Source: Bacteroidota bacterium
GTDB lineage: Bacteria; Bacteroidota; Bacteroidia; M30B66
Assembly: GCA_027490225.1 (NCBI GenBank)
Contig: JAIXYK010000006.1
Location: 1,304-65,303 of the forward strand
Length of the DNA: 64,000 nucleotides
Direction of reading: 5' to 3'
Shown in pieces: positions 1 to 37,530 of the stretch. How positions within the stretch are numbered: position 1 is the first letter of the stretch; every line of letters begins with the position of its first letter. A program made the position numbers and the translations under genes. The notes beneath the pieces were generated by a model. That model made no database searches. It saw only the letters and a list, made by a program, of their open reading frames with translations, and was not told the origin of the DNA.

Positions 1-1419
1 TGGCCATGAAATAACTACAGAATCAATAGTTGTTGAAGAGCCTAAACCAAAATGCAATTGAGAAGAATAAACAGTTCCATAACTTTCGCCTGCTCTTACT
101 TCTCTCATTTGAACTCCCCAAGGACCATAAATCATTGCTCTTGCGCCAATTGCTCCTTGGTTACTTACTGTTCCTCTTAAATCTAGTGTGAAAAAATGAT
201 TGTTGTTAGCCGTATTATTTATCCAAACAATATCATCAACATTGGTAGGTGTTGTATAAATATTAGCATAGCTAGCATAAATATCAATTTTCCCATCATG
301 ATTTAAGTCGCCCATTGAGTAAGACTCCATATTACTGCTGTTAAACAATCCTTCTATCTTCGTAAAAGTGTTGTCTCCATTATTATGAAAAAAACGTGAA
401 TCAGTACCAGTTATAAATATGTCTACAAATCCATCATTGTCAAAATCTTCAAACCCTGATTGAATTGGAGTTATATCCGCAATATTAAAACCTGTTGTTG
501 CAGTAATTTCAGTATAGTTACCAGTTCCATCATTTTCAAAAATCTGGCTTGCATGGTCATGGTTTGTTAATAACAAATCCAAATCTGCATCATTATCAAT
601 ATCTCCAAAAGATGCTGTCCAAGTTTGCCATGCTATGTTAATTCCATAAGCAGCAGCATTTTCAGTATACGTTCCATCACCATTATTCACAAACATCACA
701 TTCACACGACGAGGGTCTGAACCATCAGAGGTTGTAGAACTTTGGCGGCATTTAGCAATGTATAAATCCATATCACCATCATTATCAAAATCTGTGAAAA
801 CACTGCCGTAATTTCCTGAATCTCTTGGGTCTCCTCCAATATTTCCTGGGTTAATTGTAAAGTTTATAATATTAGATTCAGCAAGTACGCCAGTTCCATC
901 GTTTAAGTAAATTCTAGAAGGACCATTGTCATCACATAAAAAAACATCTGCCCAGCCATCGTTATTAAAATCTCCTGCAGTAGCATTCTGTAAAAAGAAA
1001 TTTGAGTTTGGTAATGTTGTAATAGTACCAGCAGTTCCCGCGTTGTTTGTCATTAAAACTTTTACACCTGAACTATTTCCACCTGCAACAATATCTTTGA
1101 ATCCGTTATGGTCAAAATCAGCAACACACATTCCCCAAGCCCATCCTGAATTATTAGAAAAACTACCTAAAGAAATGGTCTGATAAGTTTGATTTGTCTT
1201 TTGCACTTCAACAAAAGCTGCTCTACCTTGACTCAATCTGATAATATCGTCAAGACCGTCGTTATTCCAATCAATAACAGTAACAGGACATCCACTATGA
1301 AAAGCAGGCGTATTTAATCTGTTGTTGGCATTAATAAAATTAACCTGTGCATCCACAGAACTTGCTGATAGCACATTCAACAGCGCTGCTCCTGCAAGAA
1401 TTAGTAGTTTTCTATTCAT
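1..1419 (-). CDS. FG-GAP/VCBS-repeat protein with ASPIC/UnbV-like C-terminal region (CRTAC1-like). The N-terminus is in the window and the C-terminus runs off the window start.
   Basis: Hand translation of the minus strand from the ATG at 1419 (MNRKLLILAGAALLNVLSASS, a signal peptide) is open to position 1. It contains repeated DxDxDG-type FG-GAP motifs (DFDNDGDMDLY, DIDNDADLDLL, DFDNDGFVDIF) and the UnbV-like motif RAGESYGTVYSSQLHFGLG. The ORF track does not list it because no stop codon lies in the window. Confidence 0.7.
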   Translation of the reverse strand, partial: MNRKLLILAGAALLNVLSASSVDAQVNFINANNRLNTPAFHSGCPVTVIDWNNDGLDDIIRLSQGRAAFVEVQKTNQTYQTISLGSFSNNSGWAWGMCVADFDHNGFKDIVAGGNSSGVKVLMTNNAGTAGTITTLPNSNFFLQNATAGDFNNDGWADVFLCDDNGPSRIYLNDGTGVLAESNIINFTINPGNIGGDPRDSGNYGSVFTDFDNDGDMDLYIAKCRQSSTTSDGSDPRRVNVMFVNNGDGTYTENAAAYGINIAWQTWTASFGDIDNDADLDLLLTNHDHASQIFENDGTGNYTEITATTGFNIADITPIQSGFEDFDNDGFVDIFITGTDSRFFHNNGDNTFTKIEGLFNSSNMESYSMGDLNHDGKIDIYASYANIYTTPTNVDDIVWINNTANNNHFFTLDLRGTVSNQGAIGARAMIYGPWGVQMREVRAGESYGTVYSSQLHFGLGSSTTIDSVVISWP

Positions 1420-1477
1420 AGTTTGTTTGTGTTTTGTGAGGTATTATTTTTCAAATATCGTAATTATTCTTTATTAT

Positions 1478-3415
1478 TTATTTTAAAATTAACTTTCTGA
1501 TTTCCTTTCTTTTATCGGTTGAAATAGAAACAAAAACAATTCCTTGGTATTGCTGGGTATTTAATTCCCAGCAATTAGCAGATTTTCTAAAGAATGTTGA
1601 CTTTAGCTTTTTCCCATCTGCTTGAAAAACTTCAATTTCAGTTATTTTATCTACCCCATTAATAAAAATGGATTCCAAAGAATTAGCAGGGTTTGGGAAA
1701 ATCGAAAGCTTGCTCTCTTTTTTAATATTGCCTGCAGCCAAAGGAATAAAAACACTTTGTAAGGTATCATCTGCCACTAAAAAAGGTGTATGGTCTGCAT
1801 TGTCGTACATACTCAAAAATGTCTGAATTTCTGGTGCCGACAAAGTTCTCATTTCACCCAAAAAAGCAGGAGGTACCGCCTGATAATAAACCTTTACACT
1901 CGCATTTACCCTTTGCGTAAGCAAACTATATGGAAAATGAAAATGTAATATGTCTTTTCCTGTACCTTCAGCAACGCCATTTTTATTAAAATCTGGGTCA
2001 GTTAGAGCCGCTCCAACAATTCTAACTGTATCATATGTAGAATGTGTGGTTGTAAAACCTGCTGGCGGTAACCTGTTATCGATGATATATTCATCTGCCC
2101 TTTCCAAAATTGTAGTTAAATCTCCATTAACATCTGCCATCATCATCTCATACACCTGCACTTGTTCCTCACTATTTATTACGTTGTGATGCCCTTCATT
2201 CACACCAGAATAATTCAAAATATGGCCAGATTGATCAAACAATCCACTTGCAAATAATGTATCTCCAGCCTCTGATGTCAAAATAAATTGAACAAACGCT
2301 TTTCTCGCAGGATAACCACTTGGAAATTTATGACCAGCTTTATTTGTAAGTGTTACATCAAAAGAAACTGAATCTTCTAAAAATATAGGACTTGCAATTT
2401 CCGCTTTTAATGTATTTCTTCTTAACTGACGGGTGGTTGCTGCTAAAGTTGAATCGAAATTGGCATCGTTTGCAGTTATACCTAATTCACCTTTATTTTC
2501 TTTCATTAACTTAATCATGAAAGTATTAGCACCAGCAAATGTATGTAAGTTAAATGGTGAGCGTCCTGGTAGAGAAGCCGTTCCAACAGCAATTTTTACA
2601 GGATCTTCAATTTGAGGCATGTGACAATTCTGGCAAGGTCTGCTTTGAGCTGGATAAATTGAATTTAGCCATTCATGATAAGTGGCTTGCTCAACAAAGG
2701 TATTTCCAGTTTCATTGCCTTCTAGGTCTACGGTATTGGAAATTAGTGTATGGCAAGGTGAACAAAAGCTTCCTTCGCTTACATGTGTGCTGTATGTTGG
2801 GGTAAAGTTTATATATAATTGCATTGGTCCAGCCATTGGATTTTGAAATGGGCCATAAGCTTTGCGTGTGGTATCGTATGGAATGTTTCCTGTGAAGGTG
2901 GTTCCAATTCCGTTCGGACCAATTGCATGACAGCCCAAACAACCAACACCTGATAATCCTAAAGAATCTGTTTGTAAATCGTTTAAAGTATAATGATCTG
3001 CTCCTCTGTAAAATGCATTGTAATGTCCCATGGGTGCATGGCAGGAAGTGCATAATGATTGCAACTCATTTGCGTGGGCTGGATTTACCATCACTTCTTG
3101 CCTAACCTTTGCTCTCCATAAAGGATCCATTCCAGCTAATCCCATCATAGAAGTTTCCCAATCGTCGTATAAATTTATATCAACTCCTCCCAACGTAACA
3201 TTGGCGATGCCTAATGGGTCTCTACCATGACAACCTTTGCAGCGAGTAGCTGGTAAAAAAATGGCATTGGTGTCTAAAATCCTTTCGTGTTTCTGAATTA
3301 AATCAGCAATATAAAGTGCCCCAGGCTTATTAAATTGCTCTTCCCTACCCTTTAGAGAAGCACCAAAAACAATCAACAACACAAGAATTCCTGTTACTAG
3401 TAAAGTCTTCTTCAC
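1478..3415 (-). CDS. Secreted multiheme c-type cytochrome (five CXXCH motifs) with a T9SS type-A C-terminal sorting domain.
   Basis: The 645-aa ORF has an N-terminal signal peptide. Its heme-binding motifs are CKGCH, CTSCH, CLGCH, CSPCH and CQNCH. The C-terminus (SIFPNPANSLESIFINGV...GIVFVSI...KLILK) matches the Por_Secre_tail pattern. Confidence 0.75.
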   Translation of the reverse strand: MKKTLLVTGILVLLIVFGASLKGREEQFNKPGALYIADLIQKHERILDTNAIFLPATRCKGCHGRDPLGIANVTLGGVDINLYDDWETSMMGLAGMDPLWRAKVRQEVMVNPAHANELQSLCTSCHAPMGHYNAFYRGADHYTLNDLQTDSLGLSGVGCLGCHAIGPNGIGTTFTGNIPYDTTRKAYGPFQNPMAGPMQLYINFTPTYSTHVSEGSFCSPCHTLISNTVDLEGNETGNTFVEQATYHEWLNSIYPAQSRPCQNCHMPQIEDPVKIAVGTASLPGRSPFNLHTFAGANTFMIKLMKENKGELGITANDANFDSTLAATTRQLRRNTLKAEIASPIFLEDSVSFDVTLTNKAGHKFPSGYPARKAFVQFILTSEAGDTLFASGLFDQSGHILNYSGVNEGHHNVINSEEQVQVYEMMMADVNGDLTTILERADEYIIDNRLPPAGFTTTHSTYDTVRIVGAALTDPDFNKNGVAEGTGKDILHFHFPYSLLTQRVNASVKVYYQAVPPAFLGEMRTLSAPEIQTFLSMYDNADHTPFLVADDTLQSVFIPLAAGNIKKESKLSIFPNPANSLESIFINGVDKITEIEVFQADGKKLKSTFFRKSANCWELNTQQYQGIVFVSISTDKRKEIRKLILK

Positions 3416-3631
3416 AAATTTCCGATGGTTTTCTTAAATAATTATCAAAATTTATAGCAGTTTGTAGCGCCTTGATATTGATTTGGTAAAAATAGATGAA
3501 TAGATTCAGATATCAAAATTAGACAACATGATAATGTTAAAAAATCGAGGAGTAACGCAAATTTCATCTATTACTAAGCATTAACTTCGCACAAAATTTC
3601 CAATCTTAAAAGGTTTGGCAAAATATCTAAA

Positions 3632-5974: not shown

Positions 5975-6330
5975 TGCATCGTGACTCTGGTATTTGGGCG
6001 CATCCCTGCGGGCCGCGTCTTCGGCTATAGTTGCCTCCTTCGTCAGCAAGCTATTTGCCTCACCCACTTGCGCGGGCTTTTTAGGAGATTAGATGCATTG
6101 TACCGAACGGTGAAGCATAACTTTAAGTGCAGCTTTTGTTACAATAATGTCACCCCTTCGGGGTTGGCACGGAGGTAAAAATGTAGGCACTATGGCTCTG
6201 AATTTTGCATAACGATGAAAGGGGCAAATATTGACCAATATATAACTTACAGCTGCGCCAACGATTGAGACAACTACCGCCCGACGCAGGAGGGAGTAGT
6301 GGCGAAAGCGTGTCTGGCGCCCAAATTATT
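5975..6330 (+). ncRNA. Candidate structured RNA gene of unknown family (~350 nt, GC-rich). It does not match RNase P or tmRNA consensus motifs.
   Basis: Local GC is about 55% against roughly 35% in the flanks. A perfect 10-bp terminal helix joins AUUUGGGCGC (~5992-6001) and GCGCCCAAAU (~6318-6327). Internal hairpins are capped by UUCG tetraloops, for example CCCC-UUCG-GGGG at ~6153-6164 and GCCG..UCUUCGGC. There is no credible ORF; the 65-aa frame at 5981-6178 is arginine-rich nonsense. Confidence 0.3.
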
Positions 6331-7624
6331 GTCTTATTTGCATCAAAACCATGCTTCTATCTTGCGCAAAAATGGTTTGTCCGTTAGAACCTCCCATAAT
6401 GCTTTGGTATACCAATCTATAGTAATACGTGCCTGCTGTTAAATTTAAATCGGGGAAAATGATATTGGTGCAGGATATTCCTGAACCCAAAACTACTGGA
6501 TTCACTAAGTTGTTTACACCACCTGCTAATCCATCTTCTACGCGGTAAACATTGCTTACATTGGTATTAAATGTAGCATCGGTACTACGCTGAACCCAAA
6601 TACTGTAGCGAAAACCATTGCTCAAGCTGCTGGCATTGTTGGTAGATTTTATGGTAATGTTGGCCATTACTAAAACTCCTTCTGTTTCTTGCGGAGCATC
6701 AGCAATTGTAATTGTTTGCAATGGAATGTCTAAAACTTCAGCATTGCCCGAAGAATTAGGCAATGTTTGCGCATACACCTGCGTGCAAACCGCACAATAA
6801 TTAGTTCCATTTTCTAACCACAAAGAAGCAGCGTTAGCAGTTCCTGCTCCGCCTAAAGCAACAGATGTTGGATCTACTATAGAACTTGTTCCTATAGTTT
6901 TTGATTGGCCAAATACAAGTGGACTTCCTGCCGTCCCAGTTCCCGCTGGACCTTGCGGACCTTGAATTCCCTGCGGACCAATTGGCCCCACAGCACCTTG
7001 CTGACCTGCAGGACCTTGTATTCCTTGCGGACCTGCGGGACCTATTGCTCCATCTGCACCTGCGACACCTTGTAAACCTGCTAATCCTTGTGGTCCAACA
7101 GGACCGATTGGTCCGACTTCTCCTTGTGGGCCTTGTTCGCCTTGCGGCCCCTGAATTCCAGGCTCTCCTTGAGGACCTTGCGGACCAGCTGGTCCAACAG
7201 TTCCTCCTCCGCCATTACCCGAAACATTTGCATAAAAAGCATAAGGTACACTAAGTAATTCACTCGCGCCAATATTGGTGTAATTTGTTCCACCTTGCGG
7301 GTCAATTTCAACCAAAACCCATTGATTGGCTGCACTCCATGGAATTGAAGAAAAATCTCCAGATAAAACTACTCCTGTTCCTATTTTTAATGAAAAAAGT
7401 CCAAATTGACTGGTAGTTGTTAATTGTCTTTCGGAATATAAGACTGCACCTGTTGCACTTCCACTTAAGATACTAATTCTTAAAGCTACATTTTGATTTA
7501 CAAAAACACCTCCTGCAGCATTTCGAGCTATTGCTTGATAATTAATAGCTTGCGGCACTTGCGCATACATTTTAAAACTATAGAAAAATAAAAGTATCAG
7601 TAATTTCGGGAAGAGTTTTCTCAT
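6326..7624 (-). CDS. Collagen triple-helix repeat protein (secreted)
   Basis: The 432-aa ORF has a signal peptide ([22 protein letters not shown]). A ~95-residue uninterrupted G-X-Y tract ([22 protein letters not shown]...) is flanked by non-collagenous N- and C-terminal domains. Confidence 0.8.
6929..7216 (-). repeat. 9-nt periodic (GXY)n coding repeat inside the collagen-like gene
   Basis: The nucleotide sequence is visibly periodic (ggaccttgcggaccttgaattccctgcggacca...). On the opposite strand this produces the spurious LADLQDL-type ORF at 6901-7254. Confidence 0.7.
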
Positions 7625-7751
7625 AGTAATTCAATATTCAATTAAAAATCAAATGTAAGGCATGCGTTTCTTAATTAATCTTGTTTTTTACCTTAGTATA
7701 AGTGCTTGAATCATTTGAAAAAACCATTCATTTTCAAATAATTTAACATTA

Positions 7752-8279
7752 CTATTTCGCCAAAATAATTTCTTGGGTACTTACCATATTACTTCTGTTT
7801 AAGGCTCTATCTAAAATAGTTACCTCATATTTTATTGTATCATAAGGCGAAAATGGATTGTTGGTAAACAATTCAAAATTCAAATCACCTTGTAACACTT
7901 TGTTTTGTCCTACGGGTGTTAAATAAGGAATCCGGCTATTGTTTGTAAGTGTATCACCTCCTGGTTCAATTGGAGGCAGCACAATCTTAATCCATTCTCC
8001 ATTTTGCTTTTCGAAATAATTAATGAAGAAATTAAAGTAAAACTTAGAACCATAATTAAACGGAGGAAAAGTATCAGATGGACTCAAACCCATATCGCCA
8101 TCACCATCTGTGAAAGCTAATCGCAAAACACCAGATGAGTCTTTATTTGAAGAATTCTTTATCTGATCAAAACCCACAAAAGTCAATGTTGGAATATGAC
8201 TAACCACTTCTTGTTTTTTACATCCATAAAAGAACATAATCAATAAAATAAACTTGAGTACTTTTGGAACCTGAAGCAT
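7752..8279 (-). CDS. Hypothetical lipoprotein
   Basis: The 175-aa ORF has a signal peptide with a lipobox-like FFYGC motif. No family was recognised. Confidence 0.45.
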   Translation of the reverse strand: MLQVPKVLKFILLIMFFYGCKKQEVVSHIPTLTFVGFDQIKNSSNKDSSGVLRLAFTDGDGDMGLSPSDTFPPFNYGSKFYFNFFINYFEKQNGEWIKIVLPPIEPGGDTLTNNSRIPYLTPVGQNKVLQGDLNFELFTNNPFSPYDTIKYEVTILDRALNRSNMVSTQEIILAK

Positions 8280-8297
8280 TGCCCAAATATAAAGGAA

Positions 8298-9296
8298 TTG
8301 AATCTACCTGCAAGAAACGATATTATTGAAAAAATATTCGCCATTAAAAATAAAAGCGAGTTCGAGGAATGTTGTTTGGCAGTATTTAATTATCAATTAA
8401 TGCACAATGAAGTTTATGCAGCATGGGTTGCAGCTTTGGGAATTAATGGCACAAGCGTAAAAAACATACTTGAAATTCCGTTTTTACCTATCTCATTTTT
8501 TAAAACTCACAAAGTAGTAGCTGCTGAATCTCCTTTTGATATTGAATTTAGCAGTTCAGGAACAACAGGAAACACTACTTCTAAACATTATGTAAAAGAT
8601 GTAGAAATCTATAAAAAGAGTTTCATACAAACGTTTGAAATGCAATATGGAAAAACCGAAGACTTAGTTATAATTGGTTTGTTACCATCTTATTTAGAAA
8701 GAGAAGGATCCTCACTCATATATATGTGTGAGCAATTAATTATAAAAAGTAGTAAAACCGAAAGTGGATTCTATTTGAACGAATTTGAAATGTTAAACAG
8801 CTTATTGCTTGAATTAAAAATGAGCAATCAAAAAACTATTTTGTTTGGTGTTGCTTACGCTTTATTGGATTTTGCAGAGACAAGTCCTCCTGCGTGGGAA
8901 AATCTCTATGTAATTGAAACTGGAGGAATGAAAGGAAGGAGAAAAGAAATGGTGAGAGAAGAATTACATGCTTGCATCAAAGAAAATTGGCATTTAATGC
9001 ATTTGCATTCAGAATATGGAATGACAGAATTACTCAGTCAGGCATATCTTGACGATGGAAATACTTTTAATTGCCCACCATGGATGCAAATAAGAATTAG
9101 AGATACTTCTGACCCTTTACATCTAATCGGAGCAAATCAAACTGGTGGCATCAATATTATTGATCTCGCGAATGTAGATTCATGCAGTTTTATCGCCACT
9201 CAAGACTTAGGAAAGATAATAAATGACGACAGATTTGAAGTTTTAGGGAGATTTGACCACTCAGATATCAGGGGATGCAATTTATTATTGCAATAA
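8298..9296 (+). CDS. LuxE-like acyl-protein synthetase / acyl-transferase family protein (adenylate-forming fold)
   Basis: The 332-aa ORF has a SSGTTGNTTSKH adenylation-type motif. Its N-terminus resembles Bacteroidetes 'acyl transferase' (LuxE family) proteins. The only in-frame start before the conserved N-terminus is TTG at 8298. Confidence 0.45.
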   Translation: MNLPARNDIIEKIFAIKNKSEFEECCLAVFNYQLMHNEVYAAWVAALGINGTSVKNILEIPFLPISFFKTHKVVAAESPFDIEFSSSGTTGNTTSKHYVKDVEIYKKSFIQTFEMQYGKTEDLVIIGLLPSYLEREGSSLIYMCEQLIIKSSKTESGFYLNEFEMLNSLLLELKMSNQKTILFGVAYALLDFAETSPPAWENLYVIETGGMKGRRKEMVREELHACIKENWHLMHLHSEYGMTELLSQAYLDDGNTFNCPPWMQIRIRDTSDPLHLIGANQTGGINIIDLANVDSCSFIATQDLGKIINDDRFEVLGRFDHSDIRGCNLLLQ

Positions 9297-9470
9297 TCGA
9301 TAATTTTATTTTGCTGATTTTCTGTATTTTACAATGATAACAGGGTGCAAAATTAAATGTTGATGTTATAGTTAAAAAAATGATTTGTATTAAATTTGTA
9401 CATAAAGATTAGATTACTATCTTTGCAGCCCGTTTGCAAAATTGCATACTATTTTTAAAACATCATTAAA

Positions 9471-9926
9471 GTGGATTCACTGAGTTATAAAACTGTTTCG
9501 GCAAATAAGGCTACTGTAACCAAAGATTGGATACTAATAGATGCCGAAAATCTTATTCTAGGCCGATTAAGTTCGCACGTTGCTATGATTATTCGTGGCA
9601 AATACAAGCCTTCTTACACACCTCACGTTGATTGTGGTGATAATGTAATTATTATCAATGCTGAAAAAGTTGTTCTTTCGGGTAATAAAACCGATGAGAA
9701 AGTTTACACGCATTACACTGGTTACCCAGGTGGACAAAGATTTGCAACTCCTCGCGAGTTGTTAACTAAAAAGCCACAAGCAATTATTGAAAAAGCTGTA
9801 AAAGGTATGTTACCAAAAACAAAACTTGGTAATGCAATTTTCAATAATTTATTTGTCTACTCAGGCAGCGAGCATCCTCATGCAGCTCAACAACCTAAAA
9901 AAATAAATATCAACGATCTTAGATAA
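9471..9926 (+). CDS. rplM: 50S ribosomal protein L13
   Basis: The N-terminus (M)DSLSYKTVSANKATVTKDWILIDAENLILGRL is typical of L13. The start codon is GTG at 9471. The stop overlaps the rpsI start (TAATG). Confidence 0.95.
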   Translation: MDSLSYKTVSANKATVTKDWILIDAENLILGRLSSHVAMIIRGKYKPSYTPHVDCGDNVIIINAEKVVLSGNKTDEKVYTHYTGYPGGQRFATPRELLTKKPQAIIEKAVKGMLPKTKLGNAIFNNLFVYSGSEHPHAAQQPKKININDLR

Positions 9927-12009: not shown

Positions 12010-12040
12010 TCCCGTTAATTTACACGGGATTTTTTTTGAC
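12010..12040 (+). terminator. Second hairpin plus T-run in tandem, upstream of pyrH
   Basis: The stem CCCGT-taatttac-ACGGG is followed by ATTTTTTTT. Confidence 0.45.
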
Positions 12041-12058
12041 CTAGAAAACCATTTATTT

Positions 12059-12766
12059 ATGAAATATAAACGCATACTTTTAAAACTTAGTGGAGAATCC
12101 TTAATGGGCGAAAAAAGCTTCGGCATTGAACCTGAGCGCATCTCCCAATTTGCAAATGAAATTAAAGATGTCGCTTTACAAGGAGTAGAAGTTGCAGTGG
12201 TTATTGGTGGAGGGAATATCTTTAGAGGTATTCAAGCTGTTGAAGGTGGAATGGACCGCGTTCAGGGTGATTACATGGGCATGTTAGCCACTGTAATCAA
12301 TAGTATGGCGTTACAGTCTGCACTAGAAGTTATTGGCGTTCCTACAAGACTTCAAAGTGCAATTAAAATGGAACAAATTTGTGAACCATTTATTAGAAGA
12401 AGAGCAATCAGGCATTTAGAAAAAGGCCGTGTTGTTATTTTCGGAGCTGGAACAGGAAACCCTTATTTTACTACAGATACAGCCGCAACATTAAGAGCAA
12501 TTGAAATTGAAGCCGATGTAATTTTAAAAGGAACACGTGTAGATGGAATTTATACCGCAGACCCTGAAAAAGATCCCAACGCCGTTAAATACGAAACCAT
12601 TTCATTTACTGAAGTTTATGAAAAAGGATTAAATGTGATGGATATGACAGCGTTTACTTTGTGTAACGATAACAAACTTCCTATCATCGTATTTGATATG
12701 AACAAAAAAGGAAACCTCAACAAACTAATAACAGGCGAAAAATTAGGTACGCTGGTTGAGTTTTAA
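12059..12766 (+). CDS. pyrH: UMP kinase
   Basis: [15 protein letters not shown]...GGGNIFRG...[16 protein letters not shown] is the UMPK signature. The start was set at the ATG at 12059, because the ORF-track start at 11999 lies inside the tandem terminators. Confidence 0.9.
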
Positions 12767-12813
12767 CTTTTGAATTATTGCTGAATTCACTTTTCTTTGC
12801 AAAAAAATAGATT

Positions 12814-13377
12814 ATGAACGAATTGGTCAAACCCAAAATTGATGAAACTACTGCTTTGATGGACAAAGCGATTGCTCACCTTGAAAACGAACTTGCTAAA
12901 ATTCGCGCTGGTAAGGCTAGTGCTGGCATGTTGGATGGAATTTTTGTTGACTATTACGGAAATAATACACCATTAAATCAAGTTGCGAATATCAATACAC
13001 CTGATGCTAGAACATTATCAATTCAACCATTTGAGAAGAAACTTCTTGGGGTAATTGAGAAATCTATTTTCGCTTCTAATATTGGACTTACTCCTATGAA
13101 CGACGGACAAGTTATTCGTATAGGTATTCCACCATTAACAGAAGAAAGAAGAAGAGACCTTGCAAAGCAATCAAAAGGTGAAGCTGAAAACGCAAAAGTA
13201 AGTATTCGTAATATTAGACGCGATTCTAATGAAGCCATTAGAAAAATGGTGAAAGACGGATTAGCAGAAGATCTTGCAAAAGATGCAGAAACTAAAATTC
13301 AACAAATTACTGATACCTACATTGTAAAAACTGATAAGATTTTAGAAATAAAAGAAAAAGAAATAATGACCGTTTGA
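12814..13377 (+). CDS. frr: Ribosome recycling factor
   Basis: The 187-aa ORF shows the RRF pattern (IRAGKASAGMLDGI...LTEERRRDLAK). Confidence 0.95.
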   Translation: MNELVKPKIDETTALMDKAIAHLENELAKIRAGKASAGMLDGIFVDYYGNNTPLNQVANINTPDARTLSIQPFEKKLLGVIEKSIFASNIGLTPMNDGQVIRIGIPPLTEERRRDLAKQSKGEAENAKVSIRNIRRDSNEAIRKMVKDGLAEDLAKDAETKIQQITDTYIVKTDKILEIKEKEIMTV

Positions 13378-13395
13378 TCATTTATTATATTCATT

Positions 13396-13437
13396 AAAAA
13401 ACCCCCGAATAAATCATATTTAATCGGGGGTTTTTAA
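13396..13437. terminator. Bidirectional intrinsic terminator between frr (+) and glmS (-)
   Basis: The stem ACCCCCGA...TCGGGGGT is flanked by A-runs and T-runs on both sides. Confidence 0.65.
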
Positions 13438-13455
13438 TTTAAGAATTATTTCTAC

Positions 13456-15303
13456 TTACTCAACTGTAACAGATTTTGCCAAATTTCTTGGTTGATCCAC
13501 ATTACATCCTCTCATAATAGCGATATGATAAGCCAGCAATTGCAATGGAACTACACACATTAATGGCGTTAATTCTTCATCCACTTCTGGAATTTCTATA
13601 GTATGATCTGCCAATGAAGAAACATCTACGTCACCTTCTGTAACAATGGCAATAATTTTCCCACCCCTTGCTTTTACTTCTTGCACATTGCTCAAAATTT
13701 TCTCATAAGCACCTTTGTTCGGAGCAATTACCACTACTGGCATTTCCTCATCAATCAATGCGATTGGCCCGTGTTTCATTTCTGCTGCAGGATAACCTTC
13801 TGCATGGATGTAGGATATCTCTTTCAATTTTAATGCGCCTTCTAGTGCTATAGGGAAATTATAACTTCTTCCTAAGTACAAGAAATTATTTGCGTCTTTG
13901 TAAATTGAACTGATATACTTAATCTTATCGTCCAACTTTAACATGCGTTCTACCTGATCTGGAATAGAGTCTAAACCAAACAATAAACTTCTGTATTTGG
14001 CCTCAGAAATTGTACCTTTTTTATGTGCAAATACTAATGCCATTAAAGTTAAAACCGTTACCTGTGCCGTAAATGCTTTTGTTGAAGCAACACCTATTTC
14101 AGGACCTGCATGTGTGTATGAACCTGCATGCGTGGCTCTTGGTATTGAAGAACCTACCACATTACATATTCCGAAAATTGTAGCTCCTTTTGATTTAGCA
14201 AGCTCAATTGCAGCGAGCGTATCGGCTGTTTCTCCAGATTGCGAAATTGCAATAACCAAATCGTTTTCGGTAATAATTGGATTTCTATATCTAAACTCTG
14301 AAGCGTATTCAACTTCAACGGGAATTCTTGCTAAATCTTCAATTAAATATTCACCAACTAAACCAGCATGCCAAGATGTGCCGCATGCCACAATAATTAT
14401 TCTTTGTGCGTTAAGAATTTTGTTCTGATAATCAATTATTCCACCTAACGTAACCTCACCTAATTCTAGATTCAAACGGCCTCTCATATTATCTCTGATA
14501 GAACGCGGCTGTTCATAAATCTCTTTTAACATAAAATGTTCAAAACCACCTTTCTCTATTGTTTCCAACTGCATCTCCAATGCTTGTATATAAGGAGTTT
14601 TATCTTGGTTTTTTATGGTCTTTATCTTCATCTCTTTACCACGTTCCAAGATTACAATTTCTTCATCATCCAGATAAACTACATTTCGAGTGTATTCAAT
14701 GATTGGAGTAGCATCCGACGCAATAAAATATTCATGATTCTGACCAACTCCGACTACTAAAGGACTTCCTTTCTTAGCACCAATCATTAAATCAGCATTG
14801 TTCTTAGAAAGTATAACGATAGCATATGCCCCAACTACCTGATTCAAAGCCATCTGCACCGCTTCTACCAAATTAACATTCTCATTTTTACGTATATTTT
14901 CTATAAGATAAATCAGCACCTCGGTGTCTGTATCACTTTTAAAAACATGACCCCGGTTTATTAGCTCCTTCTTTAAAGAAGCATAGTTCTCAATAATTCC
15001 ATTGTGAATTATTACAAGCTCTTCATTTTCAGAATAATGCGGATGTGCATTTTTATCATCAGGAATTCCATGTGTAGCCCATCTAGTATGTCCTACACCA
15101 ATTGTTCCACTAACATCTTTACCTTCAGTAAATGCCTCTAAATCTGCAACCTTCCCTTTGCATTTAAATAATCGTATATCTTTATCTTGCTCAACAAGCG
15201 CAATTCCTGCACTATCATATCCGCGATATTCGAGTCTATGAAGTCCTTTAATTAAAATTGGGTAAGCTTCTTTTTCACCCATGTAAGCTACAATTCCACA
15301 CAT
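13456..15303 (-). CDS. glmS: Glutamine--fructose-6-phosphate aminotransferase (isomerizing)
   Basis: MCGIVAYMG marks an N-terminal nucleophile Cys GATase domain. Two SIS domains follow, and the C-terminus is ...PRNLAKSVTVE. Confidence 0.95.
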   Translation of the reverse strand: MCGIVAYMGEKEAYPILIKGLHRLEYRGYDSAGIALVEQDKDIRLFKCKGKVADLEAFTEGKDVSGTIGVGHTRWATHGIPDDKNAHPHYSENEELVIIHNGIIENYASLKKELINRGHVFKSDTDTEVLIYLIENIRKNENVNLVEAVQMALNQVVGAYAIVILSKNNADLMIGAKKGSPLVVGVGQNHEYFIASDATPIIEYTRNVVYLDDEEIVILERGKEMKIKTIKNQDKTPYIQALEMQLETIEKGGFEHFMLKEIYEQPRSIRDNMRGRLNLELGEVTLGGIIDYQNKILNAQRIIIVACGTSWHAGLVGEYLIEDLARIPVEVEYASEFRYRNPIITENDLVIAISQSGETADTLAAIELAKSKGATIFGICNVVGSSIPRATHAGSYTHAGPEIGVASTKAFTAQVTVLTLMALVFAHKKGTISEAKYRSLLFGLDSIPDQVERMLKLDDKIKYISSIYKDANNFLYLGRSYNFPIALEGALKLKEISYIHAEGYPAAEMKHGPIALIDEEMPVVVIAPNKGAYEKILSNVQEVKARGGKIIAIVTEGDVDVSSLADHTIEIPEVDEELTPLMCVVPLQLLAYHIAIMRGCNVDQPRNLAKSVTVE

Positions 15304-23728: not shown

Positions 23729-23802
23729 GGGGGATTAGCTCATTTGGCTAGAGCGCTTGCCTGGCAGGCAAGAGGTGACCGGTTCGAATCCGGTATTCTC
23801 CA
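23729..23802 (+). tRNA. tRNA-Ala (anticodon GGC)
   Basis: The cloverleaf was folded by hand. The acceptor stem is GGGGGAT/ATTCTCC with the G3:U70 alanine identity pair. The D-arm is GCTC...GAGC. The anticodon stem-loop is CTTGC-CTGGCAG-GCAAG (anticodon GGC). The T-arm is ACCGG-TTCGAAT-CCGGT and the discriminator is A. The CCA end is not encoded. Confidence 0.85.
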
Positions 23803-23925
23803 CAATAATTTCCCCAAAAAGGACTTTCAATTAATTGAATTTTAATTGTTTTTGACCAAAACGAGAAAGTTGTAGTTTTTCTTATTATTTTTACAACCAT
23901 AGTTAAACTATTATTTTCTAAGACT

Positions 23926-26900
23926 TTGCGTTTATTTAAAACCATCAAATTAGTCTTTATTGTTATTCTTTTGATGCTCATCAATGTAAAACTTGATGGT
24001 CAAAATGAGGCTGTTTTCCCTTTTGAAGAAAACAAAGGGCAATGGGTGGAGGATTTTTACTACAAACTAAAATTGAGATGGGGTAAAATATATTTCGAAA
24101 AAAATAGAATAGTAACCGAAACCTGGGATCAATCTGCAAAAAAAGAAATACTTCATAGTTTGCACGATAAGCTAACTGATAGCGAAGCATTAAAATCACC
24201 GCTTAAACAACATGCCTTTGAAGTAAAATTTATAAACCCTTCCCCTGGTTGCCGAATTTCATCCTTTTCACCATCTCCTGACTACTCAAACTACTTTATC
24301 GGAAAAAATACAAATAGGTGGAAGTCGAATATTCGTTCTTATAATTCGATTACCTATGAAAGTGTCTGGCCAGGCATCAACTTAAAATACTATACCAATG
24401 ATGGTTTTTTGAAATATGATATCATCATCGATAAGTACTCCGATCCTTTAAAAATTAAACTTCAATATAATGGGCAAGATTATATTAAACTAAAAAATAA
24501 CATTTTAACAATTAAAACATCTGTCGGGGAAATAGAAGAACTCTCTCCATTTGCTTATCAGGAAATGAATGGTAAAAGAGTAATCATTCCCTGCAAATAT
24601 CAGCTTAATAAAGATGTATTGAGCTACGAATTAGGCGCATATAACAAAAACTATCCGCTAATTATTGACCCTCAGATAATTTTTTCTACTTACTCTGGAA
24701 GCACTGGAGATAATTGGGGCGCTACAGCAACTTATGATACGTTAGGAAATGGTTTTGCGGGTGGTATAAACTTCGAAACAGGTTACCCTACCACCATTGG
24801 TGCTTACCAATCAAATTTTGGCGGTAACTCTGATGTGAGCATCACTAAATATAATGCTACTGGTTCTGCAAGAATTTATAGCACTTATTATGGTGGGGAC
24901 CAAGGAGAATTGCCATATTCCATGGTTGTAGACCAATGGGGAAATCTTTTAGTTACAGGTGTAACTGGCTCTTCTGGTTTACCGATTACAGCAGGTGCTT
25001 ACGATGATACTTTTAGCGGCGGACCTACATTTGGATTATGGGGAAATGGCAGCCAAATGAATCCATACTTATCTAATTATCCTGATGGGGCAGATTTTTT
25101 CTTAGCTAAATTTTCTCCAGATGGTACTCAATTATTAGGTTCAACATTTCTTGGGGGCAGTGGTAATGATGGTTTTAATATGTCGAATGATTTAAACAAA
25201 AATTACGGTGATATGCACCGTGGTGAAGTAATTGTTGACCCGGCTGGTGATGTATTTGTTATTGGTACAACTCAATCTTCTGACATCAATACAGTAAATG
25301 CATGGCAACCAAATTATGGAGGAGGTTCTCAAGATGGAGTCGTTTTTAAGTTAAATCCTCAGTTAACCAATATGTTATGTTGTTCTTATGTTGGGGGTAA
25401 TGCCGATGATGCTGGCTACGGAATGCAGCTGAGTGCATCAAATGAGATTTATTTTTGCGGAGGTTCAAATAGCGCTTCTATCTTGGGTTTGAATGGTTTA
25501 CACACATCAAACACAGGAAATGTTGATGGATTTGTAATAAGGGCCAATCCCAATTCAGGTAGTATAATTGCGGGCAGTTTTCTCGGCACCTCGAGTTATG
25601 ATCAAGCTTATTTTGTGCAGGTAGATAATAATGGAGATGTAATAGTTCTTGGCCAATCTCAAGGGAGTTACCCGATTCAAAGTAATGCTGGTAATCCAAT
25701 ATATTCTGTTTCTGGCGGAATGTTATTTTTCCATAAGCTAAATCCAAATCTAAATCAATCTATTTGGAGTACAACCTTCGGAGCACAGGGAAATCCAAGT
25801 TTTATTGTTCCCTCGGCATTTTTAGTAGATTACTGTGGTTTTATTTCTTTTTCTGTTTGGGCTGGTAATGTTAATGCACCACTTTCGAGTACTACTATTG
25901 GTCTGCCAGTCACTCCAGATGCTTTCCAAGGAACAAGCACTGGCAGTGATTTCTACTTGGCTGTATTAACAGAAGATGCAGCATCTTTGCACTATGCAAC
26001 TTTTTTTGGAGGTGCTCAGGATAATGAGCATGTGGACGGAGGAACTAGCCGATTTGATAAAAACGGTGTGGTTTATCAATGTGTTTGTTCAGGTTGTGGA
26101 CCAACTGATAACGATTTGCCAATAACACCAGGAGTTTGGTCTGCAACAAATAACAGCAATAACTGCAATGCAGCACTTTTCAAATTTGATCTTTCCGAAT
26201 TTTCTGCAATTGTAAATGAAGCAGTTCAAAGTAATTTTTGCTTGAACCAAGCTGTACAATTTCAAAATTTTAGTACAGGAACCAATCAATTTTTATGGGA
26301 TTTTGGAGATGGCAGTACTTCAACAGAAGCAAGTCCATCACATGGGTATTCTACTCCAGGAATTTACACAGTAATGCTTATAGCTATTGGTGATGGATTG
26401 TGCGTTCAAGCTGATACTGCCTATACTCAAGTGGAAGTAGCATCAGTTCTAAACCTGAGCTTCACTCCTCCTCCAACAATTTGTCAAGGGGAAAGCATTG
26501 AATTACAAACTCAAGGAGCTGAAAATTACTATTGGATGCTAACAGGCGGCTTAAATGCTAATGAGCAAACCATTCCAAACCCTACCGTTAGTCCTATTAT
26601 TACAACCGTTTATACTGTTATAGGTTCTAATAACTGCGGAAGCGATACTGCATTCATTAGTGTACCTGTTGTTACTTTCAATATTCAATTAACAGTTTCT
26701 GAAAATGAAATTTGCGAGGGAGGTTCTGTTTCAATTAGCTCAACACCTGCACTTACTTACCAATGGCAGCCAGCAACAAATATCAACAACCCTAATGCAC
26801 AAAATGCAATATTTACACCTTCTCAAAGTGGATTTGTGAGTTTGCTAGCAACAGACCCGAATAACTGCACGAGTAAGGATTCTGTATTTATTGAAGTTGA

Positions 26901-27855
26901 TATTTTCCCAACTTCTGATGCTCCGGCCGACACAATTATTTGTTTGGGCGACGAAATAGTTTTAAGTCACACTTCAACCAATACGCAAGTTTGGACAAAT
27001 CTGCAGAATAATGAGACAACTAATGGAATTTCAATTACAATTGCACCAAGCACATTGTCTTCCTATCAACTTGCGGTTTCAAATGAATGTGGTACAAGTA
27101 GAGATACAACTGTAGTAGATGTTAGCAAAGTTATCCCTACTGCAGGGCCTGAAAAAACAATATGTGTGAGTGAACCTGTTGTTGTTTTTGCAACTGGTGG
27201 TGTAAATTATAGCTGGATTCCTGCAAGTGATTTTTCTTCACCTACAAACAGTACAACAATATTAACTCCAAGAGAAAATGTAGATTATACAGTAATTGTA
27301 AAAAATGAAATTGGTTGTCAAGCCATTGCTGACCTGCCTGTTACTTTATTCCCAATTAGCTTCGTATCTGCTGGTGAAGATAAAATAATACAATTTGGAG
27401 AAAGCGCATCACTGAATGGTTCCAGCTCAGAAGGAACAATTATCTGGACTCCCGATTACAGATTAAGTTGCTTAGATTGCTTGCAACCACTCTCGAGAAC
27501 AGATTCCACTATTAAATATACAATTAGTTTAACAGATTCTTTTGGTTGCAAATACAGTGATGAGACTTTGGTGCTTGTGGAAGGTTCATTGTATATTCCA
27601 AATGCATTCACTCCAAACGGAGACGGTATAAATGATTTCTTTGGGCCTGAAGCAATTGATGTTTCTAAATATTCATTAAAAATTTTTAATCGCTGGGGAG
27701 AAATAATTTTTACTTCTAATAATTTAAAAAACGGTTGGGACGGAACATTCAAAGGAAAAACTGTTCAAAATGATGTTTACGTTTATCAACTCAATTACGA
27801 GTTCAATACAGGAAAAACGGGCAATGCTGTTGGTCGAGTTACTTTGATTCAATAA
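23926..27855 (+). CDS. Large T9SS type-B cargo: secreted protein with beta-propeller (SBBP-like) repeats, a PKD domain, CHU_C-type Ig-like repeats and the gliding-motility-associated C-terminal domain
   Basis: The 1309-aa ORF starts MRLFKTIKLVFIVILLMLINVKLDGQ, a signal peptide; the most upstream in-frame start is TTG. The PKD motif is FLWDFGDGSTSTEASPSHGYSTPGIYTVMLIA. Repeated CxGxxxxLxxxGxxxYxW...YTV modules follow. The C-terminus YIPNAFTPNGDGINDFFGP...VYVYQL...GNAVGRVTLIQ matches the TIGR04131-type C-terminal domain. Confidence 0.8.
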   Translation: MRLFKTIKLVFIVILLMLINVKLDGQNEAVFPFEENKGQWVEDFYYKLKLRWGKIYFEKNRIVTETWDQSAKKEILHSLHDKLTDSEALKSPLKQHAFEVKFINPSPGCRISSFSPSPDYSNYFIGKNTNRWKSNIRSYNSITYESVWPGINLKYYTNDGFLKYDIIIDKYSDPLKIKLQYNGQDYIKLKNNILTIKTSVGEIEELSPFAYQEMNGKRVIIPCKYQLNKDVLSYELGAYNKNYPLIIDPQIIFSTYSGSTGDNWGATATYDTLGNGFAGGINFETGYPTTIGAYQSNFGGNSDVSITKYNATGSARIYSTYYGGDQGELPYSMVVDQWGNLLVTGVTGSSGLPITAGAYDDTFSGGPTFGLWGNGSQMNPYLSNYPDGADFFLAKFSPDGTQLLGSTFLGGSGNDGFNMSNDLNKNYGDMHRGEVIVDPAGDVFVIGTTQSSDINTVNAWQPNYGGGSQDGVVFKLNPQLTNMLCCSYVGGNADDAGYGMQLSASNEIYFCGGSNSASILGLNGLHTSNTGNVDGFVIRANPNSGSIIAGSFLGTSSYDQAYFVQVDNNGDVIVLGQSQGSYPIQSNAGNPIYSVSGGMLFFHKLNPNLNQSIWSTTFGAQGNPSFIVPSAFLVDYCGFISFSVWAGNVNAPLSSTTIGLPVTPDAFQGTSTGSDFYLAVLTEDAASLHYATFFGGAQDNEHVDGGTSRFDKNGVVYQCVCSGCGPTDNDLPITPGVWSATNNSNNCNAALFKFDLSEFSAIVNEAVQSNFCLNQAVQFQNFSTGTNQFLWDFGDGSTSTEASPSHGYSTPGIYTVMLIAIGDGLCVQADTAYTQVEVASVLNLSFTPPPTICQGESIELQTQGAENYYWMLTGGLNANEQTIPNPTVSPIITTVYTVIGSNNCGSDTAFISVPVVTFNIQLTVSENEICEGGSVSISSTPALTYQWQPATNINNPNAQNAIFTPSQSGFVSLLATDPNNCTSKDSVFIEVDIFPTSDAPADTIICLGDEIVLSHTSTNTQVWTNLQNNETTNGISITIAPSTLSSYQLAVSNECGTSRDTTVVDVSKVIPTAGPEKTICVSEPVVVFATGGVNYSWIPASDFSSPTNSTTILTPRENVDYTVIVKNEIGCQAIADLPVTLFPISFVSAGEDKIIQFGESASLNGSSSEGTIIWTPDYRLSCLDCLQPLSRTDSTIKYTISLTDSFGCKYSDETLVLVEGSLYIPNAFTPNGDGINDFFGPEAIDVSKYSLKIFNRWGEIIFTSNNLKNGWDGTFKGKTVQNDVYVYQLNYEFNTGKTGNAVGRVTLIQ

Positions 27856-37040: not shown

Positions 37041-37530
37041 GTAGAGATTTAAAACGCATTTATTATTTGCAGTAGAATCAATTGAATAATTAAATACTCT
37101 AGAAGTATATTTCTCCGATATGGTTTTTTTATTAATATAAATGTTCTAAAATAAAGATTTTTTAGGAAAATAAATCAAAAACAATAAGCCCTAAGGTAAG
37201 CCATTTTACTCAATAGTAATATTACTAAATCTAATTACGAACAAATTGATAACAATTGTCATAATTTGAATTATATTAGCTAGAATTGAAACATATTTGG
37301 AAGTGCACAACCAGTATAAAATTAAATCTTGGATTTCTTATTATAAATCGTACTTAAAACTTTTAAACATGAAAAAAATTAATCAATCATTGATACATTT
37401 TTTTGAATGTATCAATCAAAGTCAGCTTATTAATGTGTTTAGTGATTACCGTATTAACCTAGATCTCAAAAAAACCATTTCCAAATTTTCTATTAGCCCC
37501 AAGTTATGGGGGTGGGGGGTAATTAATTAC

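Follow-up and report, generated by a model that had tools for sequence, protein, structure and literature searches.

Organization of the locus

The window, the whole 64,000-nt stretch of a Bacteroidota contig (JAIXYK010000006.1) analyzed here, begins with two genes on the minus strand. One (1478..3415, minus strand) is the gene of a pentaheme c-type cytochrome that combines a PHC-fold heme cap, an Ig-like domain and a C-terminal domain (CTD) of the type IX secretion system (T9SS). The other (1..1419, minus strand) covers the first 473 codons of a CRTAC1-like partner gene that continues beyond the window. A divergent intergenic region (3416..3631), the presumed promoter, lies between aspS (plus strand) and the cytochrome gene.

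The cytochrome ORF starts with GTG and codes for 645 aa. Its N-terminus, KKTLLVTGILVLLIVFGASLKG, resembles by inspection a Sec signal peptide (residues 1 to ~23, nt 3347..3415, minus strand), has no lipobox Cys and is kept hydrophobic among homologues (alignment A1). An alpha-helical five-heme domain (residues ~50-300, nt 2516..3268, minus strand) contains the CXXCH motifs, at residues 59, 122, 159, 218 and 261 (nt 3227-3241, 3038-3052, 2927-2941, 2750-2764 and 2621-2635). All five motifs are invariant in an alignment of 150 homologues, so that a chance pattern is excluded; a multiheme c-type cytochrome is a Sec-exported protein with at least two CXXCH, and this protein has five. Ten of its 11 Cys are inside these motifs, and the remaining one, C615, is in the C-terminal tag. 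The Ig-like beta-sandwich domain (residues ~301-560, nt 1736..2515, minus strand), assigned from the secondary structure of the model and from HMM alignments to 5ze8 and 9wt8, carries the family loop TNKAGHKFPSGYP (GHKFPSGYP, residues 361-369, nt 2309-2335, minus strand). More than 2500 full-length homologues, 50-92% identical, were found at E<=1e-3, and at least 587 species genomes have a relative; the "large" PHC pentaheme cytochromes comprise 4544 representative clusters at E<=1e-3.

The cytochrome carries a T9SS sorting tag

Residues 572-645 (nt 1481..1702, minus strand) correspond to a T9SS type A C-terminal sorting domain. TIGR04183 recognizes it with 31.4 bits, above the cutoff of 23, while Pfam Por_Secre_tail (PF18962) scores 25.2 bits against a gathering cutoff of 27. 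TIGR04183 was matched at E<=0.001 by all 30 aligned relatives, many cytochrome relatives have a precomputed PF18962 match, and the A1 profile matched a CTD in the PDB (8glk_D, E 3.7e-4). In a first AF2 model this domain was predicted with a pLDDT of 78-91. With the five invariant motifs and a TIGR04183 score above the cutoff, the preliminary description of a five-CXXCH c-type cytochrome ending in a T9SS domain holds, including under the comparison with T9SS models that it had proposed.

Indirect evidence for a T9SS in the host comes from a second T9SS cargo gene, with a CHU_C type B CTD, at 23926-27855 of the window and from the relatives, which all belong to Bacteroidota; no T9SS core gene was identified among the 20 window ORFs scanned. 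The best known T9SS cargo proteins are hydrolases, adhesins and motility proteins, and our literature search for T9SS or type IX secretion together with multiheme cytochromes found no paper; in a broader search, the two topics were not combined in any of the top-ranked papers.

The partner is predicted to be a calcium-binding propeller protein

The part of the partner inside 1..1419 (minus strand) includes a signal peptide, an FG-GAP propeller and the start of an UnbV_ASPIC domain. Pfam matches are FG-GAP_3 (E 4e-42) and UnbV_ASPIC (E 2e-12), human CRTAC1 (9etn) is matched in the PDB with E 6.6e-5, and the propeller has six D-x-[DN]-x-[DN]-G calcium-type motifs. These features agree with the preliminary description, which had proposed a secreted FG-GAP/UnbV protein of CRTAC1 type encoded downstream and in the same orientation; indeed, both ORFs are on the minus strand, 58 nt apart. 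Full-length partner orthologues have ~950 aa, with extra Ig_7 domains and a T9SS CTD, and Por_Secre_tail was found on full-length partners in four of four annotated loci. By sequence, these orthologues are thus predicted T9SS cargo themselves, which the preliminary description had not foreseen. There is no CXXCH in the partner, nor any conserved His or Met past the start codon in an alignment of 43 orthologues. From these predictions, we classify the partner as an FG-GAP/UnbV propeller that carries Ig domains, binds calcium and is not redox-active.

To our knowledge, no biochemical function has been assigned to the CRTAC1/ASPIC-UnbV family. Like human CRTAC1, the partner has a calcium-binding propeller of FG-GAP type joined to an UnbV_ASPIC domain; what it adds are Ig_7 domains and a sorting tag, either T9SS or MYXO-CTERM. 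A literature search for UnbV together with cytochrome returned nothing relevant; in non-anammox bacteria, CRTAC1-family genes have been described within clusters of hydrazine-synthase-related heme-c proteins (PMC12758564).

The two genes are conserved as a pair

The gap between cytochrome and partner (1420..1477, minus strand, 58 nt) contains no terminator-like site, suggesting that the two genes are co-transcribed. Among 65 informative Bacteroidota loci, in which the cytochrome has 44-61% identity, the partner adjoins the cytochrome in 60; conservation as a pair, a check called for by the preliminary description, was therefore found. In 55 co-oriented orthologous loci, the gaps measure ~23-314 nt, approximate values extrapolated from tblastn matches. 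Co-transcription is probably general in Bacteroidota. The genes flanking the pair vary among Bacteroidota loci, unlike the partner, and none of 72 loci of distant FG-GAP/UnbV genes had a cytochrome of this family beside them. Sampling of non-tagged relatives (Acidobacteriota/Chloroflexi-type group) gave three stand-alone genes without a partner, so that the pairing is clade-specific and not family-wide.

The closest clade has a gene for a Crp/FNR-family regulator directly upstream of the cytochrome gene, and ccoI, ccoNO and ccoP downstream. No Crp/FNR-family regulator gene is present in the window region 3416..3631, and inspection by eye upstream of the cytochrome gene revealed no convincing TTGAT-N4-ATCAA box. 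As a general feature of the pair we rejected the FNR/cbb3 linkage, since it is confined to one clade and absent from the window. Porin-cytochrome extracellular electron transfer is recognized by a periplasmic multiheme cytochrome linked to an outer-membrane porin; the annotated neighbors in 12 loci included no such genes. In loci with annotated neighborhoods, neither a porin-cytochrome conduit nor a quinol dehydrogenase gene was beside the pair.

The pair was also detected in a clade of Myxococcota, outside the scope of the preliminary description. In four of six loci of this clade, the partner gene precedes the cytochrome gene, the reverse of the Bacteroidota order, and in one locus the stop and start of the two genes overlap. 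MYXO-CTERM was detected in one Myxococcota partner and in several cytochromes, so that in this phylum predicted MYXO-CTERM surface-sorting tags replace the T9SS tags. A cultured carrier is available, Paraliomyxa miuraensis, which makes experiments feasible.

The cytochrome is modeled as a large PHC-fold protein

An initial AF2 model from an alignment of 30 close homologues gave a heme-domain pLDDT of 55 and was superseded by a model from the 150-sequence alignment (pLDDT 91.8, pTM 0.91). By Foldseek, the sole significant PDB match of this model was 5ze8 (E 4.4e-14, probability 1.0), with a TM score of 0.66 normalized to the target and 0.49 to the query and ~14% identity. Consistent with this, the A3 profile had 5ze8 as its best match (E 4e-7) and reached MccSep, 9wt8, through the Ig-domain loop (E 5.7e-4), while a PDB search with the single cytochrome sequence gave nothing significant (MtrC, E 0.079). 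The AF2 model and its Foldseek match to 5ze8 display the arrangement that marks PHC proteins, in which a helical domain with five hemes precedes an Ig-like beta-sandwich. The His-x-x-P-x-G-x-P loop of this family is also present, with GHKFPSGYP aligned to HAMPTGAP (5ze8) and HSIPDGUP (9wt8), and H362 of this loop is conserved (>=90%) in three clades of three. On the basis of the model, we assign the cytochrome to the large PHC-fold pentaheme proteins, as a heme cap plus an Ig-like domain, and the Ig-like domain is predicted to reach toward the hemes via the conserved G-H-K-x-P-x-G-x-P loop.

5ze8 is the low-potential pentaheme cytochrome c552 of Thermochromatium tepidum (Chen et al. 2019, as cited in PMC13510729). 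Both proteins have five CXXCH in an N-terminal helical domain and an Ig-like domain at the C-terminal side, and they share a loop motif (NLQPHAMPTGAPFR versus NKAGHKFPSGYPAR). In contrast to c552, which is soluble, has ~385-435 aa and no surface-sorting tag, the cytochrome has a core of ~500 aa, ends in a T9SS CTD and has a propeller partner of its own. The PHC pentaheme family was proposed for cable bacteria and Geobacter, with ExtKL as sPHC and GSU2801 as lPHC, as a pentaheme plus an Ig-like domain, the "large" subtype having a bigger cytochrome domain (PMC11976967). The ~500-aa core agrees with the large subtype as described there; in contrast, the PHC proteins of that study are said to be periplasmic, and neither a sorting tag (T9SS or MYXO-CTERM) nor a CRTAC1-like partner has been reported for any of them.

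The only characterized relative is MccSep, or ExtKL (GSU2937-2936, Geobacter sulfurreducens; PDB 9wt8), a pentaheme selenoprotein polysulfide reductase; it is a periplasmic, tetrameric enzyme and not an electron shuttle, and its active site is flanked by heme 2 and the Ig-domain loop (PMC13510729). MccSep and the cytochrome share a five-heme cap and an Ig-like stem, with collinear heme motifs (5/5) and homologous Ig-domain loops (TNHAGHSIPDGUP versus TNKAGHKFPSGYP). The position of Sec325 of MccSep is occupied by Y368 in the cytochrome and by Y, F, I or H among relatives; heme 2 of MccSep has a distal Cys ligand, C239, whereas the cytochrome lacks a Cys for this role. The NCBIfam ExtKL model was matched weakly by 30 of 30 family members, and the cytochrome reached 29.4 bits with the ExtKL equivalog NF040886, far under the 250-bit cutoff. 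Because Sec325 and the heme-2 Cys are missing, the cytochrome does not share the polysulfide-reductase active site, and with neither Sec nor Cys at G-U-P and such a score we rejected membership in this group. Moreover, the cytochrome is T9SS-tagged, unlike the periplasmic tetramer MccSep.

Pfam Mtrc-MtrF_II-IV_dom (PF22113) was matched weakly (E 2e-4, 21.4 bits versus 30). MtrC and OmcA of Shewanella are surface multiheme proteins in which pentaheme domains alternate with beta-barrel domains; they have ten hemes and are type II-exported lipoproteins docked on the MtrAB porin-cytochrome conduit. The cytochrome resembles them in its surface exposure, predicted here, and in the pentaheme building block, but shows none of their ten-heme content, lipoprotein signal, type II export or MtrAB docking. 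We rejected membership in this family as well, given the five hemes, the lack of a lipobox and the PF22113 score under the cutoff.

A putative cell-surface redox module and its alternatives

With a chance that we rate slightly above even, the cytochrome and its partner form a two-gene cassette for a putative cell-surface redox module. Both proteins would cross the inner membrane via the Sec pathway, the cytochrome acquiring its five hemes in the periplasm, and both would leave folded via the T9SS, their tags then being removed. The mature proteins may remain on or near the cell surface, where the propeller/Ig partner could serve as a docking or substrate-binding subunit and the pentaheme cytochrome could carry electrons to or from an extracellular substrate, a transfer probably most important at low oxygen. 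Heme loading and secretion are inferred for the pair, as are complex formation and electron flow.

This redox-module proposal is supported by the five invariant CXXCH together with the model match to 5ze8. Export is supported by the tag in all 30 relatives, by Por_Secre_tail on the four partners and by the second T9SS cargo of the window, whereas coupling is suggested by a partner that stays adjacent while the flanks vary, by the empty controls and by the recurrence of the pair in a second phylum. Pairing with a propeller is further supported by two relatives in which a pentaheme module is fused to a GSDH (PQQ-type sugar dehydrogenase) propeller, and the Crp/FNR and cco genes of the closest clade hint at the low-oxygen role. 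The proposal is weakened by the one-clade nature of that linkage, by the Pfam CTD score just under its cutoff, and by annotated neighborhoods that offer neither porin-cytochrome nor quinol dehydrogenase genes. Non-tagged relatives that stand alone, the periplasmic enzyme MccSep and polar residues conserved across clades (E242, Q243, K363, D446, R448 and Y422) that could mark a catalytic pocket weaken it as well.

These last points would fit a secreted PHC-type enzyme that, like MccSep, acts on a soluble small molecule but by another chemistry, with the propeller only as accessory or anchor; candidates include a peroxide, a sulfur or nitrogen oxyanion, or a metal that is reduced or oxidized at heme 2. 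MccSep is a reductase whose Ig-domain loop and loop His are kept in the cytochrome, stand-alone genes are common among relatives, and for five hemes there are only four non-motif axial-ligand candidates conserved in all three clades (M91, M266, H291 and H362). E242, Q243, E248, K363, D446, R448, Y422 and Y511, also conserved in the three clades, could line a pocket. However, all ten core Cys are in CXXCH, so that both a His/Cys heme and a Sec/Cys nucleophile are impossible, and the Sec-equivalent position is variable. An extracellular reductase would need an electron supply too, and it speaks for an integral partner that the partner is tightly conserved in two phyla. We regard this enzyme as a serious but rather unlikely alternative. 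The cytochrome might instead polymerize extracellularly into a heme filament, a nanowire for which the propeller/Ig protein would be anchor or nucleator. Its closest fold, c552, was proposed as an evolutionary relative of archaeal extracellular cytochrome nanowires, with a common heme arrangement and a beta-hairpin (PMC11976967), and cytochrome and partner are both predicted to be extracellular. A filament nevertheless appears very unlikely, given a confident compact monomer in the model, crystals of soluble c552 and the tetrameric MccSep; no inter-subunit ligand was identified.

An NrfA- or cytochrome c554-like fold, raised in the preliminary description, found no backing. Although NrfA also has five hemes, and Cytochrom_C552 (PF02335; E 0.085, 12.2 bits versus 24.1) and Cytochrome_C554 (E 0.55) were matched weakly, both scores are far under their cutoffs, the active-site heme motif CXXCK is absent from the sequence, and Foldseek with the model retrieved neither an NrfA nor a c554 structure at E<=0.001, 5ze8 being the sole significant fold match. 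A nitrogen-cycle enzyme of either type is thus extremely improbable. We give just as little credence to an ordinary periplasmic cytochrome with an incidental neighbor and a decayed, non-functional tag. The PF18962 score under the gathering cutoff would speak for it, but TIGR04183 scores the query above its cutoff and matches every aligned relative, adjacency of 60/65 with variable flanks stands against 0/72 in the controls, and the pair recurs in Myxococcota with another tag. The conservation data therefore disfavor this explanation.

Implications

A covalently heme-loaded multiheme cytochrome as routine T9SS cargo would widen the known cargo range, and would bring redox chemistry to the cell surface of Bacteroidota that are very common in freshwater, soil and wastewater. 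We also consider it conceivable, though quite unlikely, that the pair assembles on the outside of aerobic gliding bacteria, via T9SS in Bacteroidota and MYXO-CTERM sorting in Myxococcota, as a widespread and previously unrecognized extracellular electron-transfer device, be it a surface terminal oxidoreductase or a nanowire-related cytochrome filament; if true, such cells could do without a classical porin-cytochrome conduit when they exchange electrons with prey, minerals, humics or polymers. A partnership kept in two phyla with the sorting tags swapped offers a concrete, testable entry to two large protein families: pentaheme cytochromes of the "large" PHC type and the CRTAC1/UnbV proteins of bacteria.

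Results

The cytochrome gene, an ORF of 645 codons with a GTG start on the minus strand (1478-3415), encodes a protein with a hydrophobic, signal-peptide-like N-terminus and five CXXCH motifs (residues 59, 122, 159, 218 and 261). Ten of its 11 cysteines lie within these motifs, and the remaining one, C615, falls within the C-terminal tag. Residues 572-645 matched TIGR04183, the T9SS type A sorting domain, at 31.4 bits (cutoff 23), and the C-terminus scored 25.2 bits against Pfam PF18962 (cutoff 27). Downstream on the same strand, after a 58-nt gap in which we looked for a terminator-like site and found none, the partner ORF begins at 1419 and is cut off by the edge of the window (1-1419, minus strand), so that 473 residues are visible. 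Within them lie a signal peptide and six calcium-type motifs of the form D-x-[DN]-x-[DN]-G, as well as FG-GAP_3 repeats (Pfam E 4e-42) and the start of a UnbV_ASPIC domain (E 2e-12), with a further match to human CRTAC1 (9etn). Given the five CXXCH motifs, the TIGR04183 match and the co-oriented FG-GAP/UnbV neighbour, the preliminary description of a T9SS-sorted pentaheme cytochrome beside a CRTAC1/UnbV gene is therefore correct in all particulars.

Full-length partners are ~950 aa long and combine the FG-GAP propeller, UnbV_ASPIC and Ig_7 domains with their own Por_Secre_tail. An alignment of 43 partner orthologues showed the calcium-type motifs, six in all, together with Cys pairs that are conserved; since it contained no CXXCH, and no His or Met position other than the initiator Met reached 95% conservation, the partner itself is unlikely, judging by its sequence, to be redox-active.

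Conservation of the pair was examined at 65 Bacteroidota loci, all of which extend 1.5 kb or more past the downstream end of the cytochrome gene and which together cover 44-61% cytochrome identity. An FG-GAP/UnbV gene lay directly downstream on the same strand in 55 of them (approximate gaps 23-314 nt), was adjacent yet convergent in five labelled Saprospiraceae, and was absent from the other five. The remaining flanking genes vary by lineage, and therefore the conserved unit is the gene pair itself. As a reciprocal control, we used 80 metagenomic loci encoding FG-GAP/UnbV relatives: the cytochrome was directly upstream in 3/6 Bacteroidota-type relatives (at least 41% identity, upstream DNA available) and nowhere in the fetched DNA of the 72 distant ones (at most 35% identity). 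At one partner-less locus (L013, 10001-11785) the cytochrome ORF stops early within the T9SS tag (594 aa), which suggests either that the cassette has decayed in this lineage or that the assembly is wrong there. At one locus labelled Saprospiraceae (L071), FG-GAP/UnbV-type genes flank the cytochrome gene on both sides (7194-9674 and 12013-14346).

The reciprocal control also contained a high-GC locus (L092, 3821-7743) in which an FG-GAP/UnbV gene is followed by a pentaheme gene of the cytochrome family. The first product (681 aa) has a MYXO-CTERM domain, the myxobacterial surface-sorting tag (TIGR03901, 23.5 bits, cutoff 20), and the start codon of the second (626 aa) overlaps the partner stop codon; the C-terminus of this cytochrome (GCGC..., a hydrophobic stretch and RRRRS) looks like a MYXO-CTERM tag too. 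Its homologues form a Myxococcota clade, some named Nannocystaceae and two from Paraliomyxa miuraensis. Many are annotated with MYXO-CTERM, and among 10 scanned with TIGR03901 two were above cutoff and two more near it. The partner precedes the cytochrome in four of six Myxococcota loci (L092, L168, L170, L171); the exceptions, L169 and L172, encode a second paralogue with no FG-GAP partner and with a GSDH-family gene 3-5 kb away. Compared with the Bacteroidota pair, the gene order is reversed and MYXO-CTERM tags stand in place of T9SS tags; therefore shared operon ancestry is unlikely as the sole explanation of the two-phylum pair, and the arrangement points to a functional partnership of cytochrome and partner at the cell surface.

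The cytochrome family is large. A word-indexed search gave more than 2500 homologues. Most of the best 120 span the full length (about 645 aa), with identities of 50-92%; where a name is given, which is rare, it reads "T9SS type A sorting domain-containing protein" or hypothetical, and the source is a Bacteroidia MAG. Scanning one genome per species placed relatives in at least 587 species genomes; the best 80 of these are all Bacteroidota MAGs, many from lakes and wastewater according to record titles. A profile search run in full over 1.8 billion representative proteins returned 4544 matches (E<=1e-3) with a conserved core at profile positions ~50-553, corresponding to the heme domain and the next domain; the C-terminal tag is missing from many relatives of 550-620 aa, and the few named among them come from Acidobacteriota and Chloroflexi. 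In some proteins the pentaheme module is fused to other domains: C-terminally to a GSDH (PQQ-type glucose/sorbosone dehydrogenase) propeller (representative proteins P0187 and P0209), to TauE, or to DUF642 plus dockerin.

An initial structural model, built on 30 close homologues, was of low quality across the heme domain. The model from a 150-sequence alignment, in which all five CXXCH motifs are invariant over an identity span of 29-88%, reached pLDDT 91.8 and pTM 0.91. Foldseek against the PDB gave a single match at E<=0.001, the low-potential pentaheme cytochrome c552 of Thermochromatium tepidum (5ze8; E 4.4e-14, probability 1.0, TM 0.66 target-normalised and 0.49 query-normalised). Used as a sequence profile, the same alignment matched 5ze8 (E 4e-7) and MccSep of Geobacter (9wt8; E 5.7e-4), and both matches run through a second-domain loop, which reads NKAGHKFPSGYPAR in the cytochrome, NLQPHAMPTGAPFR in c552 and TNHAGHSIPDGUPT in MccSep. 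The NrfA/c554 fold raised in the preliminary description found no such backing, with Pfam E values of 0.085 and 0.55, no CXXCK and no fold match.

MccSep has a helical cap holding five hemes, plus an Ig-like stem, whose loop puts Sec325 beside heme 2, which is ligated by His and Cys (PMC13510729). All five of its heme motifs are collinear with those of the cytochrome. The Sec position is Tyr368 in the cytochrome (Y, F, I or H in relatives), a free Cys for heme ligation is lacking, and the score with the ExtKL equivalog model, 29 bits, falls short of its 250-bit cutoff; because of these differences we rejected the cytochrome as an MccSep-type enzyme.

Around the pair, the window carries everyday chromosomal genes: aspS, rpsB, tsf, glmS, panC and leuS, plus those for an amino acid kinase resembling uridylate kinase and for a subunit of ATP synthase. 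A gene at 6326-7624 (minus strand) encodes 432 aa, with a signal peptide and a long collagen triple-helix region of Gly-X-Y repeats (Pfam Collagen E 2e-12), and one at 8298-9296 (plus strand) encodes a homologue of LuxE-like acyl-protein synthetases (Pfam LuxE E 1.6e-10) in a Bacteroidota setting that is not luminous. A second predicted T9SS cargo (1309 aa; 23926-27855, plus strand), with tRNA-Ala (23729-23803) just upstream, combines DUF7948, a beta-propeller repeat, PKD and a CHU_C type B T9SS sorting domain. A large uncharacterised protein of 1453 aa (37297-41658, plus strand), with only a weak right-handed beta-helix match, is followed by a second such protein, of 424 aa, with no Pfam match (41665-42939, plus strand).

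Discussion

The analysis shows a five-heme cytochrome of PHC fold, export tags on both proteins, conservation of the pair in two phyla and a partner lacking any sign of redox activity, and the two genes are probably co-transcribed. Both proteins would be exported by Sec, with heme attached in the periplasm, and the folded holo-cytochrome would leave via T9SS, which carries folded cargo. Once exported, they may be kept at the surface or released, and could form a physical complex with each other, where the propeller/Ig protein would serve for docking or substrate binding and the cytochrome would carry electrons. The main rival to such electron carriage is that the cytochrome is itself an enzyme acting on a soluble substrate. 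Consistent with this, only four non-motif axial-ligand candidates (M91, M266, H291, H362) are conserved in the Bacteroidota, Myxococcota and untagged clades, and polar residues are conserved across the same three clades (E242, Q243, E248, K363, D446, R448, Y422, Y511), of which E242 and Q243 align roughly, in a low-confidence alignment region, at the heme-ligating Cys of MccSep.

Only in the closest Bacteroidota clade is there a hint of a role at low oxygen. In that clade the gene for a Crp/FNR-family regulator, Cys-rich at its N-terminus, stops 30-60 nt short of the cytochrome start, and the partner is followed by a 196-aa unknown protein, ccoI, ccoNO and ccoP (L081, 9224-9934 and 15032-21947; also L001-L006, L008, L009 and L064). 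The window has no Crp/FNR-family regulator between aspS and the cytochrome gene, and no cco homologues.

Each part taken alone is of a known kind, be it PHC fold, T9SS CTD or CRTAC1-like propeller; the combination of the three, with its cross-phylum conservation, is new and uncharacterised. Our search of a literature library found no paper joining T9SS or type IX secretion with multiheme-cytochrome terms, and none linking UnbV/CRTAC1 proteins to the pentaheme cytochrome. A loose parallel is offered by other bacteria, where CRTAC1-family genes occur within clusters of hydrazine synthase-related heme proteins (PMC12758564). The pair, with a function that we infer, is real, widespread and open to experiment.
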